DNA of 64,000 nucleotides from assembly GCA_964476595.1 (NCBI GenBank), contig CAYZCL010000133.1:179-64178 (forward strand), in the 5' to 3' direction. How positions within the stretch are numbered: position 1 is the stretch's first letter; every line of letters begins with the position of its first letter. Below the pieces are notes generated by a model. That model did not search any database. It worked only from the letters and a program-made list of their open reading frames with translations, and had not been told where the DNA came from. Positions 12,039 through 14,959 of the stretch are shown here, piece after piece. The translations under genes were made by a program, and so were the position numbers. The stretch comes from an uncultured Desulfobacteraceae bacterium (lineage in GTDB: Bacteria > Desulfobacterota > Desulfobacteria > Desulfobacterales > JALSRD01).

Positions 12039-12311
12039 ATGATGCAGAAATTCGTTTACTTCGAAGACGTGGTGACCCTCTCCCTGAACCCGGAAAAGTG
12101 CGTGGGTTGCGGCCTGTGCGTGGAGGTCTGCCCCCACGCCGTGCTGGAGATGGCCAACGGCCGCGCCCGCATCGCCGACTTCGGTGCCTGCATGGAGTGC
12201 GGCGCCTGCGCCCGCAACTGCCCCGCCGCCGCCCTGGACGTGCGCACCGGCGAGGGCTGCGCCCAGGCCATCCTCAACGAGATGCTGGGCCGCAAGTGCG
12301 AGTGCTGCTGA
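12039..12311 (+). CDS. hgcB: mercury methylation ferredoxin HgcB (2x[4Fe-4S])
   Basis: 90 aa with CVGCGLCVEVCP and CMECGACARNCP motifs, an extra Cys in GEGC and a C-terminal CECC. A GGAG RBS lies upstream (ATG at 12039 or 12042). Confidence 0.9.
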   Translation: MMQKFVYFEDVVTLSLNPEKCVGCGLCVEVCPHAVLEMANGRARIADFGACMECGACARNCPAAALDVRTGEGCAQAILNEMLGRKCECC

Positions 12312-12315
12312 GCGG
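12102..12315 (+). repeat. direct repeat copy 1 (hgcB codons 22-90 plus stop plus 4 nt)
   Basis: 214 nt that match 14721..14934 at all but 4 positions. This copy is in frame with the hgcB 5' part and keeps all Cys ligands. Confidence 0.92.
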
Positions 12316-12710
12316 TCATAACGGTGTTGAAGCGTTGATTTTTCCGGCCCTGGCGGCGGTTGACCTGAAGCCTTTACCCTTGCGTTTTTGCCGATTTTTT
12401 TGTTTCCTTGATTTTACCATCTGGGTACCTCCTGCTTATATGGTTAGTTTTTGTCAACTCCCATAATAACAGGGTTCCCAGATGGTTTTCAATTTTCAGG
12501 CTACGTTCGTGCAATATTCAGGTACTATAAGTTGGGATTCGTGATATACGCCTAACTCCCCGTAAAACAACACTGTTTTTGCTCTCCTCCGTGGTTTTGT
12601 TCTGGCCAAATACCGAGTATTCCGAATATATGGGTACAGTTGGGATAAAATCAGGCTAAAAACGGGGCAGGGCGACCGGTCCGGAAAGCCTAAAGGAACT
12701 CCAAATAGCC

Positions 12711-12747
12711 TTGCAAAATGTACGGATATGTATTAGAGTGCAATACA
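12711..12747 (+). promoter_or_regulatory. promoter/operator of the RHH-RelE module
   Basis: TTGCAA (12711-16), a 17-nt spacer, then TAGAGT (12734-39). The inverted repeat TGTATT-N7-AATACA (12729-12747) overlaps the -10. Confidence 0.4.
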
Positions 12748-12770
12748 CAAAGACACGCGGGGGGTTATGT

Positions 12771-12989
12771 ATGAGCACTGCAATTTCCATAAGAGTCCCG
12801 GACGAGCTGGCCGCCAAATTGTCCGAGATTGCAAAAGAGACCGAAAGGTCCAAGTCGTTTCACATCAAAAAGGCTCTGGAGGTCTACCTGTCTGAGCTTG
12901 CCGATTATCAGGTGGCCTATGACCGGCTGCAAGATGCGACCGATCCGGTTGTTTCTCTCAAGGACCTACGGAAAGAACTTGAACTATAA
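12771..12989 (+). CDS. ribbon-helix-helix (CopG/RelB-type) antitoxin
   Basis: 72 aa reading MSTAISIRVPDELAAKLSEIAKETERSKSFHIKKALEVYL, an RHH signature. Its stop overlaps the toxin gene start. Confidence 0.8.
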   Translation: MSTAISIRVPDELAAKLSEIAKETERSKSFHIKKALEVYLSELADYQVAYDRLQDATDPVVSLKDLRKELEL

Positions 12990-13230
12990 GATTGCGTTCA
13001 AAAAGTCGGTGGCGCGCGACCTGAAAAAGATCGAGAAAAACCAGGTCGACAAGATTTTGGAAAAAATCGAGGCGGACCTTCCCGTAAAAGCCGATACTTT
13101 TCCGGCCTTAACCGGCAAGTTTGCGGGTCTCAGAAAATTTCGAATCGGAAATTACCGCGTCATCTACGCCATTTCTGGAGACACGGTCCTTATATTGCGC
13201 GTCAGCCATCGGCGGGAGGCCTACCGATAG
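12979..13230 (+). CDS. type II toxin, RelE/ParE family
   Basis: 83 aa from the TTG at 12979. The sequence is NYKIAFKKSVARDLKKI...FRIGNYRVIYAISGDTVLILRVSHRREAY. It overlaps the antitoxin by 11 nt. Confidence 0.8.
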   Translation: MNYKIAFKKSVARDLKKIEKNQVDKILEKIEADLPVKADTFPALTGKFAGLRKFRIGNYRVIYAISGDTVLILRVSHRREAYR

Positions 13231-13364
13231 CGGCAAGCCTGGTGCCGAGCTGAATCTGTTTGGGTTGTGGGGTGCCCTTTCAATCTGTATCCTTATACAT
13301 AAAGGATACATCTTTGGTCGTACACTATCCCAAGAATATGGCAAAAAGGCGTGCCAAAAAGGGT

Positions 13365-13400
13365 AGATCGTGGAATTGTCGTGACAAATCCACGATCTTT
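13365..13400 (+). terminator. hairpin terminator after relE-like gene
   Basis: GATCGTGGA-N14-TCCACGATC is a 9-bp perfect stem followed by TTTC. A second 8-bp inverted repeat (GTATCCTT-N7-AAGGATAC) sits at 13286-13308. Confidence 0.4.
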
Positions 13401-13423
13401 CCAGGAAATGTCAGCAGGGGCGC

Positions 13424-14092
13424 TCAGTCATCCGGCCCCCGGTGCGAGGTGGCGTCCTCGTCGACCCAGTCCTCTTCGGTGTAGGACATGCCTTTTCGCC
13501 CCGGCACCTTGCGCCTAGGCCCGGCGCGATAAAAAGGACAGCTTTTCGGTCCGTAGCAGAAGGTCTCGAAACGGTACCGTTTCATAGACGGGTTCCAGTG
13601 GTCGATGATCATTTCCACCGGCATCCGGCAGGCCCACATGCAGGCCACGCATTTGGCCTTGTATGTCCTGACGTCCAGTCGCCGATGCCCGCGTTGCCGG
13701 TATGTCGTCAGCTCGGGCGGCACGCCGAGGAAAGGCGGCCCATCAGGCAAGGCATCCGCCACGTTCTTTTCTATTTTGATTCGGCTGGTTTTATAAAATC
13801 CGGCGGTTTCGAGCCTCGGATCAGGGACCGGAAGCGACAGGCCTCTCACCACCATCCCGGCGCAAAAACGATGCTTTTCGTGTGTGGCCTTTCCCACGGC
13901 TATCTGAAACTCACCGCTTTCCTCTCCGCATGTTCCGTCAACGCGAAGCACATACCCCTGGTAGCTGTGGTGTCGCTCATCGAAAGACCGCAGGAGACGG
14001 ATCCGCGGCTGAACAGCCCTGATCCCCCCGCGCCAGGCGATTTTCTTTGCACCGGACTTTCCCTGCACCATCAATCTATATCCAATTTGCAC
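13424..14092 (-). CDS. hypothetical Cys-rich protein (family not recognised)
   Basis: 222 aa from a GTG start, or 215 aa from the ATG at 14071. The C-terminal half carries CVACMWAC..(30 aa)..FCYGPKSCPFY. Codon usage is coding-like. Confidence 0.55.
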   Translation of the reverse strand: MQIGYRLMVQGKSGAKKIAWRGGIRAVQPRIRLLRSFDERHHSYQGYVLRVDGTCGEESGEFQIAVGKATHEKHRFCAGMVVRGLSLPVPDPRLETAGFYKTSRIKIEKNVADALPDGPPFLGVPPELTTYRQRGHRRLDVRTYKAKCVACMWACRMPVEMIIDHWNPSMKRYRFETFCYGPKSCPFYRAGPRRKVPGRKGMSYTEEDWVDEDATSHRGPDD

Positions 14093-14343
14093 AGGACCCG
14101 GTGAATCCGCCGGATCCGTTCGTTGTCCGATATGAACAGGGTGATCCCCCGGTTGAATACCCTAATCTCAATGGTTCCCTCGGAAAGGATCAGCTTGAGC
14201 TGTTACGGCCCCATAGTCCGGTCTCCTGTCGACGCGCTGCTCGATCTTGCCTCGCATCCGCCTGTGCAGGCCGGGGCTCCTCTACCTGGGCCTTTTCGTA
14301 CCTGTTATGTGTCGACGCGGTTGCCGGAACAGCGTACCACATG

Positions 14344-14610
14344 CTAGTGGCCTACGGATAGAGGCTTTATCTTTGTTATCTCCCGACTTTCCCTTTCCTT
14401 GACCATATCGATATCATACTGCAGCTGCAGGCGCAAAAAATAGCCCTCCGAAAGACCGAAATACTTTGACAGTCGAATTCCCACCCGAGGGGTAATGCTG
14501 CGCTTGCCCCGCAGGATTTCACTGAGCGCCATGTAGGGAATACCGGTGTCTTTTGCCACCCGGTATGCCGACAGGTTCAAGGGCTCCAGAAACTCTTGTT
14601 TTAAAAACAC
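14344..14610 (-). CDS. higA: HigA-family antitoxin (XRE HTH), no cognate HigB
   Basis: FLKQEFLEPLNLSAYRVAKDTGIPYMALSEILRGKRSITPRVGIRLSKYFGLSEGYFLRLQ matches the HigA/VapI pattern. The ORF starts at a GTG. An out-of-frame ATG (MAKKLIP) lies just upstream. Confidence 0.7.
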   Translation of the reverse strand: MFLKQEFLEPLNLSAYRVAKDTGIPYMALSEILRGKRSITPRVGIRLSKYFGLSEGYFLRLQLQYDIDMVKERESREITKIKPLSVGH

Positions 14611-14720
14611 ACCGGGTGTTCCAGGGGATCAATTTTTTGGCCATGGCGACACCTCCTGGTGATAGTCGACAATTTCGACCTGAAATGCGCTGCCGTCTTT
14701 CCATAACCTCCCACAAGTAT

Positions 14721-14930
14721 GTGGGCTGCGGCCTGTGCGTGGAGGTCTGCCCCCACGCCGTGCTGGAGATGGCCAACGGCCGCGCCCGCATCGCCGACCT
14801 CGGAGCCTGCATGGAGCGCGGCGCCTGCGCCCGCAACTGCCCCGCCGCCGCCCTGGACGTGCGCACCGGCGAGGGCTGCGCCCAGGCCATCCTCAACGAG
14901 ATGCTGGGCCGCAAGTGCGAGTGCTGCTGA
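14721..14930 (+). pseudogene. displaced 3' fragment of hgcB (repeat copy 2)
   Basis: It encodes VGCGLC...KCECC but lacks the first Cys codon (TAT instead of TGC just upstream). It also carries F-to-L and C-to-R (MERGAC) changes, so both Fe-S motifs are broken. The repeat extends to 14934. Confidence 0.85.
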
Positions 14931-14959
14931 GCGGCCGCGGCGCCCCGCAACCATCCCTT

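Follow-up and report, generated by a model that had tools for sequence, protein, structure and literature searches.

How does a gene come to have two 3' ends? The question is raised by a 64,000-nucleotide stretch of DNA from an uncultured Desulfobacteraceae bacterium (GenBank assembly GCA_964476595.1, contig CAYZCL010000133.1, positions 179 to 64,178), referred to here as the window, in which the mercury-methylation gene hgcB is followed by 2.4 kb of foreign DNA and then by a second, incomplete copy of its own 3' end. No genetic determinant of microbial mercury methylation other than hgcAB is known, and gene loss and horizontal transfer are the usual explanations for the patchy distribution of hgcAB. 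The segment between the two copies, termed the islet in what follows, is most likely a fixed, decaying remnant of a small mobile island that sits directly behind hgcB in one species-level lineage.

A repeat finder run over 9-18 kb of the window returned a single outstanding direct repeat of 238 nt at 94% identity, and base-by-base comparison resolved within it a near-perfect core of 214 nt (12102-12315 against 14721-14934) with four mismatches, in agreement with a preliminary description of the locus that had been made from the sequence alone. BLAST lengthens the match to 220 nt (12096-12315) with six mismatches. Copy 1 (12102-12315, plus strand) consists of the last 210 nt of hgcB, stop codon included, and 4 further nucleotides, such that the right edge of the repeat stands 4 nt past the stop codon (TGAGCGG) and the left edge immediately past the codon for the Cys that opens the first cluster motif. 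The gene that it completes is intact, as had been claimed: hgcB (12039 or 12042 to 12311, plus strand) encodes 89-90 amino acids with two CX2CX2CX3CP motifs and a C-terminal CECC, matches Pfam Fer4 and scores 109.7 bits on the NCBIfam HgcB model NF040864, for which the cut-off is 99. Copy 2 (14721-14934, plus strand), with a residual open reading frame (ORF) at 14685-14930, is a displaced 3' fragment and a pseudogene. Its first Cys codon is gone, TGC having become TAT just outside the repeat, and it carries a Phe to Leu and a Cys to Arg change relative to copy 1 (CMECGAC to CMERGAC, the latter at 14817), each of which the preliminary description had read correctly; its ORF scores 84.7 bits on the same model, under the cut-off.

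The differences between the copies also give some indication of the age of the event. The four mismatches (copy 1/copy 2, in copy 1 positions: 12107 T/C, 12180 T/C, 12185 T/A, 12198 T/C) all fall within the left 97 nt of the repeat and the right 117 nt are identical, a distribution with a probability of about 0.04 under an even spread. With three relative lineages as outgroups to set the polarity of the changes, copy 1 has undergone three C>T changes since the duplication (12107, 12180 and 12185), two of them silent, one replacing Leu with Phe and none inactivating. Copy 2 has undergone a C>A change at 12185 and an inactivating T>C change at 12198 (the Cys to Arg replacement), and in one strain, represented by contig L082, it has acquired an extra G>A at 14847 and a nonsense codon (GAG>TAG) at 14898, copy 1 of that strain being unchanged. 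Given these inactivating changes and the nonsense codon, copy 2 is a decaying pseudogene. The copies are 1.9% apart, the strains 0.19% and the sister lineages about 12%; the event therefore predates the split between the strains, and it is much younger than the lineage.

That the segment between the copies came from elsewhere is evident from its composition and from related genomes. Its 2405 bp have a G+C content of 52.3%, as against 68.9% and 67.9% in the flanks, which bears out the lower G+C reported for it. The preliminary description had also suggested a comparison with relatives in which hgcAB is uninterrupted and followed directly by the ATPase gene, and three such lineages were found: L084 (GCA_054038835.1, HgcA 90% identical to that of the window), L086 (GCA_964442705.1, 87%) and L179 (GCA_054008355.1, HgcA within the 90% cluster of L084). 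In all three a convergent gene for a heavy-metal P-type ATPase begins 37-40 nt after hgcB, and the gene order matches that of the window on both sides (RecX, thiamine genes, MarR, hgcAB, ATPase, ArsR, sigma factor); two unitigs (L087 and L180) show the same empty site. Three related lineages thus have an empty site with the same synteny, which identifies the segment as an insertion, and specifically a lineage-specific one of foreign DNA. In the empty-site relative a short-read unitig (L085, from Logan run SRR33094770) also stops about 87 nt into hgcB, at the equivalent of window position 12128 and thus near the left edge of the repeat, which could be due to chance, to strain variation, or to a variant in that sample with a repeat starting there.

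Within the lineage the islet has been inherited vertically across strains. The HgcA of the window is 100% identical to a protein (P0001) that is encoded on an ENA contig (L081) and on a contig of an NCBI metagenome-assembled genome (L082), both of which carry the same repeats and islet. Compared with the window over 21 kb, L081 differs by 5 single-nucleotide polymorphisms (SNPs) and L082 by 37 SNPs and 2 indels, so that the three are separate assemblies of related strains. The islet is present in 3 of the 3 contigs on record that encode the exact HgcB. A contig from the Joint Genome Institute (JGI; L088) crosses the right junction, starting in the islet and reaching the ATPase gene by way of copy 2, and Logan unitigs from two further runs (SRR8542060 and SRR33956859) end 30 nt into the exact repeats: L083 ends at 12137, L170 spans 12286-13418, and L173 ends at 14756. 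For a k-mer length of 31, which was assumed for these unitigs, a stop k-1 nt inside a repeat is what would be expected.

The contents of the islet are a mixture of intact genes and debris. Next to copy 1 lies an A+T-rich, non-coding left end of about 45% G+C (12316-12526), to which neither Pfam in six frames nor any compared locus gave a match; one minus-strand site resembling a sigma-70 promoter (12492-12463) scores no better than chance. This is followed by a segment (12527-12688, minus strand) that is homologous to the DNA following the antitoxin gene higA in an island named L174, at 77.5% identity over 169 nt to L174 5318-5479; the 162 nt that follow higA in L174 are found in the window beyond relBE. 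The adjoining stretch 12523-12545 is half of a 41-nt palindromic repeat of L174, with GTTGGGATT at 12531-12539. The ribbon-helix-helix and RelE/ParE pair noted in the preliminary description holds up in full: a relB-type antitoxin gene of 72 codons (12771-12989, plus strand; Pfam RHH_1, E = 4e-8; NF048017, 59.7 bits against a cut-off of 50) is followed, with an overlap of 11 nt, by a gene for a RelE/ParE-family toxin of 83 amino acids (12979-13230, plus strand; Pfam ParE_toxin, E = 4e-14; TIGR02385, 39.6 bits against 27.9). Both genes are intact, and with the antitoxin first and both products above curated cut-offs they are predicted to form a type II toxin-antitoxin (TA) pair.

The remainder of the islet is read from the minus strand and is less well preserved. 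An intact gene for a Cys-rich protein of 215 amino acids, here called geneB (13424-14071), has just downstream of it a conserved, self-complementary hairpin (13361-13416, minus strand; 91% identical to positions 1840-1894 of another island, L240), with terminator-like predictions nearby at 13339-13356 and 13286-13310. Upstream of geneB lies a 5'-truncated 3' fragment, of about 43 codons, of a second gene, geneA (14072-14202, minus strand), in which the nucleotide homology to other loci ends at 14199-14202. The HigA-like antitoxin of the preliminary description is there as a domain match (TIGR02607, 71.9 bits against a cut-off of 47.7, covering only positions 10-80 of the 81 in the model), but the gene is a frameshifted pseudogene (14344-14644, minus strand) beside a stub of its toxin gene. 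When aligned to L174, higA shows two 1-nt deletions after codon 7, in the C runs 14627-14624 and 14616-14614; the gene originally started from an ATG at 14644-14642, and what remains is an ORF of 88 codons with a GTG start (14344-14610), whereas full-length homologues have 99-114 amino acids and start with MAKKLIPLEHPGVFLK. As one of the assemblies with the same sequence is a MEGAHIT short-read contig, these frameshifts are unlikely to be homopolymer errors. The toxin gene higB is reduced to its last 15 codons (WKDGSAFQVEIVDYH; 14660-14704, minus strand) of an original 99-110, and the homology to higB of L174 and L240 starts exactly at 14704. With higB a stub and higA twice frameshifted, the HigB/HigA pair is no longer intact.

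Between the higB stub and copy 2 are 16 nt of filler, AACCTCCCACAAGTAT (14705-14720), which are not homologous to higB of L174 or L240 and which, among the compared loci, occur in this lineage only. Together with the first bases of copy 2 (junction 14720/14721) the filler makes up a palindrome, CCCAC-AAGTAT-GTGGG, for which a rough estimate gives a chance occurrence of about 0.1; it may be said to resemble, loosely, the TCCCAAC/GTTGGGA arms of the L174 repeats, a resemblance in sequence that should be treated as a lead only. A plasmid or phage origin was considered for the islet as a whole, and no nucleotide match to it was found in PLSDB or INPHARED.

Where, then, does such an assortment of genes travel? 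The islet is kin to islands that are associated with a recombinase. The preliminary description had proposed looking for copies of the islet beside a recombinase. The higBA block matches L174-L176 at 88% nucleotide identity, L174 being its closest relative, and in L174 a gene for a 197-amino-acid, Xer-like tyrosine recombinase lies 250 nt upstream of higB in divergent orientation, with a WGR-like ORF beyond it. Relatives of this recombinase, 45-70% identical, are present on about 27 IMG/VR contigs, and on the XerA/integron-integrase model it reaches 58 bits against a cut-off of 220. In the window higB is cut at 14704/14705, and the side on which L174 carries its recombinase is the side that is missing. 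The window from 14704 down to 13362 is, in addition, collinear at about 83% identity with L240-L243 over the higB stub, higA, the geneA fragment, geneB and the hairpin. In L240-L243 both higB and higA are full length, L240 has the same truncated geneA block, and at its far end it shows a match to the WGR-like region of L174. This collinearity implies that the mosaic of higA, geneA fragment and geneB predates the arrival at hgcB, and to judge from the aligned sequences only the truncation of higB and the frameshifts in higA would have happened in place. In L240 geneB (1037-1757) is disrupted by a deletion of about 25 nt and by frame changes and in the window it is intact, a pair of states that fits geneB as a passenger without its partner gene.

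The organization of L174 deserves mention in its own right. Over 3494-8074 of this locus (ENA ERZ27262658; also L175 and L176) the recombinase gene stands beside a series of TA cassettes (higBA, HigB-like/helix-turn-helix, PIN/MazE, BrnA) that are separated by 41-nt palindromic repeats (CCAATCCCAAC..GTTGTTGGGATTAGG) at 5465, 6253 and 7571, and a motif similar to these repeats occupies part of the interval from the recombinase gene to higB. In its organization the array is like an integron or a dif module, although the recombinase is not IntI-like. An integron reading of the islet was rejected: the recombinase is too short, at 197 amino acids, and scores too low, and only half of a 41-nt repeat and no integrase were seen in the window. 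The accessions of the relatives (ERZ272626xx/Ga02568xx) are near those of the window lineage (ERZ27262694/Ga0256914), which suggests, from the accession series only, that they share a habitat.

The mechanism that we favour for the arrival of the islet, and to which we would give about an even chance, is that of an island that brought its own recombinase and later lost it. The layout of the locus, with an intact gene, the insert, and a displaced copy lacking its 5' part, matches a single crossover with an element that bore the 3' end of the gene, and the cargo (relBE, higBA and geneAB) is typical of mobile or defence islands. On this account a circular element would have carried its own copy of at least the last 214 nt of hgcB, which it had probably acquired beforehand, within this lineage, when it excised imprecisely from this very site. 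A small tyrosine recombinase encoded by the element would then most likely have catalysed a single reciprocal crossover, leaving in order a rebuilt hgcB (copy 1), the element, the native 3' end in its displaced position (copy 2) and the gene for the ATPase. One later deletion on the copy 2 side could have taken the recombinase gene and most of higB together and so stranded the element; were the recombinase of L174 transposed to the window, it would fall between higB and copy 2, in the interval removed at 14704/14705. The longest uninterrupted identity between the copies is 117 nt, and recombination by RecA could remove the islet and leave one hgcB behind; such a loss may be disfavoured by the intact relBE pair, and the retention of the islet in all sampled strains is compatible with a penalty of this sort. 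We infer the existence of a circular intermediate, the involvement of a recombinase, the succession of events and the part played by relBE.

A number of results weigh against this account. No recombinase gene or fragment was found in the ORFs of the islet (Pfam) or in its six-frame peptides (Pfam and PDB), and none among the Pfam annotations that cover the window over about 1.0-24.6 kb, nor by eye at 43-55.5 kb; a second island of low G+C within the part scanned by eye has only transposase fragments of the insertion sequence (IS) type and, as far as was seen, no recombinase. A jackhmmer search seeded with the L174 recombinase gave no match in the window or the compared loci, a result that is uninformative, as in about 1.5 Mb it picked up no other integrase either. 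Of 82 other hgcAB loci that gave an hgcB match, not one has a second hgcB fragment, and hgcB is thus not a recurrent target among the loci scanned. No hgcB-like DNA or protein is encountered in L174-L176, L240-L243 or 59 viral loci, and no conserved attachment site of the hgcB type (attP) was found on the element side. A derived T at 12181 (CGC to CTC), specific to the lineage, is present in the two copies alike, which means that both descend from this lineage's own allele; this would fit a RecA-type or an in-situ route equally well. The figure of 214 nt, moreover, need not be the original length of the duplication: copy 2 abuts the filler and a truncated gene, and its left edge may mark where a deletion ended rather than the border of an attachment site. 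The public records contain neither an empty-site nor an excised form of the strain from which the window comes.

In the light of these results the proposals of the preliminary description fare unevenly. Its statement that no integrase is present is borne out for the islet and for those parts of the window that were annotated or scanned by eye. Its suggestion that the repeats are the attL and attR sites of an integrative element agrees with the layout of the repeats and with the empty sites in relatives, but not with the lack of a recombinase in the islet, the 82 loci that have not been retargeted, or the lack of an hgcB-like attP. Decay of the element, one of the options that it gave for the missing integrase, draws support, indirectly, from the loss of higB on the side where L174 has its recombinase.

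Of the alternatives to a recombinase-borne island, the one that survives best starts from a sibling strain that already had the islet behind its hgcB. DNA of that strain, entering as a circle or as a fragment, could have been joined to the chromosome by a single RecA crossover, or by homology-facilitated illegitimate recombination, over at least 214 nt of hgcB, as the natural counterpart of the Campbell insertion of a suicide plasmid. We consider this unlikely, if by no means far-fetched. It would account readily for two copies that are 98% identical and share the lineage-specific T at 12181, for an islet without a recombinase, for hgcB not being a recurrent target among the 82 loci and for related islands without hgcB sequence, and the 117 nt of uninterrupted identity are ample for RecA; but a previous event linking the islet to an hgcB 3' end is still required, its precursor arrangement (the islet without a duplication) has not been found in any strain recorded, and it leaves unexplained why the islet family travels with a tyrosine recombinase located exactly where the deletion lies.

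Somewhat more doubtful is an in-situ rearrangement, in which foreign DNA entered the spacer of 29-40 nt between hgcB and the ATPase gene and a duplication arose locally, for example by template switching or by repair of a break in which hgcB was copied again. The point of insertion, 4 nt past the stop codon, would then simply be the only neutral place between two convergent genes, and the common lineage origin of the copies would follow directly; yet no known route of transposition or repair routinely yields a target duplication of 214 nt, and several independent rare events would be required to obtain an intact gene with a displaced 3' fragment, which is the classic outcome of a single crossover. 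A variant of this scenario is that a larger duplication, of hgcB or of hgcAB, was trimmed by the deletion that truncated higB, and that the 214 nt record a deletion end-point rather than an attachment site. Copy 2 does abut the filler and a higB that lacks its 5' part and is oriented away from copy 2, as one deletion would leave them, although the clustering of the four differences in the left 97 nt, with its chance probability of about 0.04, is not predicted by simple drift after a duplication.

A bolder version of the recombinase-borne island, and in our judgement an improbable one, would make the 3' end of hgcB a genuine attachment site for small islands that carry a tyrosine recombinase of about 200 amino acids and ferry TA and defence cassettes among sediment anaerobes, the palindrome CCCAC-AAGTAT-GTGGG being the hybrid core site. 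If this were true, the mercury-methylation operon would be physically tied to a mobile element, which would offer a handle on the reshuffling and transfer of hgcAB neighbourhoods. That the duplication is an assembly collapse or chimera, a concern raised in the preliminary description and a natural one for a metagenome-derived contig with repeats of about 200 nt that exceed assembler k-mers, can be rejected with hardly any reservation, as three assemblies differing mutually by 5 to 39 changes have the same structure, the separate JGI contig crosses the right junction, the unitigs of two runs enter each junction and stop 30 nt inside the exact repeat, and the copies differ at four sites, with two more in one strain, and are hence separate loci.

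The recombinase-borne island that we favour has well-known counterparts. Phage 21 and the element e14 insert in the 3' part of the icd gene of Escherichia coli and supply a replacement 3' end, leaving a displaced pseudogene, icdC, on the far side, with repeats of well over 100 nt and few differences. As at icd, hgcB would be kept intact by a replacement 3' end and its original end would have been displaced as a pseudogene. Phage 21 and e14, however, keep an integrase gene by the attachment site, sit at icd in many strains and can excise, whereas the islet has no integrase, has hgcB as its target, and is known from a single lineage of which no excised or empty form was found. The islet also recalls the islands at the 3' ends of tRNA and tmRNA genes that are inserted by P4-type tyrosine integrases, where a direct repeat of the target's 3' end likewise brackets foreign DNA of lower G+C and which often decay and lose their integrase. 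It differs from them in its protein-coding target (no tRNA or tmRNA gene is present in the window) and in a repeat that, at 214 nt, is longer than most att repeats derived from tRNA genes, and the related recombinase of L174 is, unlike a P4-type integrase, a 197-amino-acid, Xer-like enzyme with a catalytic domain only.

Two further comparisons bear on the cargo and on the topology. The TA cassettes and 41-nt palindromic repeats of L174 are reminiscent of recombinase-side arrays of TA and defence cassettes, such as chromosomal integron-like arrays and Xer/dif modules, and the window retains half a repeat (12523-12545) and TA cargo of the same family. The L174 repeats are, however, shorter than a typical attC, no full repeat is found in the window, and a cassette-type insertion alone would not duplicate 214 nt of its target. 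The Campbell integration of a non-replicating plasmid has the same topology, including repeats that can recombine and delete the insert, but is a laboratory construct, whereas the islet consists of natural TA and defence DNA without vector or marker genes. The islet is most likely the remnant of an island at the 3' end of a protein-coding gene, an event of an ordinary kind at an unusual address. A full-text search for hgcAB together with integrase, in which matches were judged by title and abstract, yielded no report of a mobile-element footprint abutting hgcB.

For work on mercury methylation the locus has some practical consequences. Foreign DNA can lodge at the 3' end of the hgcAB operon without destroying the gene; hgcB is intact here, and no effect on methylation is indicated by the data. 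A second, truncated 'hgcB' called beside hgcAB can be a displaced pseudogene and not a paralogue. The 214-nt repeats break short-read assemblies inside hgcB, as in the Logan unitigs that end at 12137, and could cause metagenome surveys to report hgcB genes that are truncated.

The most novel item met in the islet is the large, unannotated family to which geneA and geneB belong. The preliminary description had called geneB an orphan, a label that must be abandoned, for more than 4200 homologues, 71-87% identical, are known from many phyla, with 971 clusters at 50% identity. No match to it was obtained in Pfam, NCBIfam, PHROGs, PADLOC or the PDB sequences. An AlphaFold2 model of only moderate confidence (pLDDT 57) has an OB-fold-like N-terminal half, the OB-fold matches from Foldseek being weak (E = 0.05-0.3), and the Cys-rich part is the C-terminal half. 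Among the loci compared (L089-L167, L231-L239 and, on the minus strand, window 13424-14202), a full geneA of about 110 codons precedes and overlaps geneB in 34 of 67 loci other than the window, and an ADP-ribosylglycohydrolase-like gene follows geneB in 14 of 68 by direct count. Elsewhere the pair has as neighbours genes for HsdR, DUF499/DUF1156, ThsB-TIR, Schlafen/AlbA_2 and TGT/QueC, and it is present on 9 IMG/VR contigs. Together, geneA and geneB may constitute an undescribed two-gene defence or TA module.

The native surroundings of the islet are those of a metal-related locus. Ahead of hgcB, at a distance of 9 nt, ends hgcA (10870-12030, plus strand), which encodes the corrinoid protein of mercury methylation (NCBIfam NF040863, 458 bits against a cut-off of 275) with an NVWCAAGK motif; the public gene call starts at 11011, and directly upstream a gene for a MarR-family regulator overlaps the longest hgcA ORF (neighbourhood 10410-17294). 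To the right of copy 2 are the gene for the heavy-metal P-type ATPase (14960-16876, minus strand, convergent with hgcB; TIGR01525, 599 bits) and that for an ArsR/SmtB metalloregulator (16935-17294, minus strand; NF033788, 98 bits), the position of which is kept in the relatives. No intrinsic terminator is predicted in the window directly after hgcB, or between hgcB and relBE. The insertion may, as the preliminary description proposed, influence the termination of hgcAB transcripts, which might now continue into relBE. The convergence of ArsR/SmtB and heavy-metal ATPase genes on hgcB is a conserved feature of this neighbourhood in the window, L084, L086 and L179. In L084 and L179 a gene with a YHS/TRASH domain comes after ArsR, and in the window lineage that place is taken by a public ORF call of 53 amino acids with no domain match.

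Further from hgcB, to the left of this neighbourhood, a thiamine pyrophosphate riboswitch (Rfam RF00059, 69 bits; 8978-9069, minus strand) lies upstream of genes for thiamine biosynthesis and transport. To the right, the second island of low G+C extends over about 43500-52300 (43-55% G+C) and is bounded by fragments of IS-type DDE transposase genes at 44351-44824 and 52064-52636; its cargo comprises a gene for a helix-turn-helix protein (45048-45986) and a set of genes for a Liv-type branched-chain amino-acid ABC (ATP-binding cassette) transporter (45983-51647).

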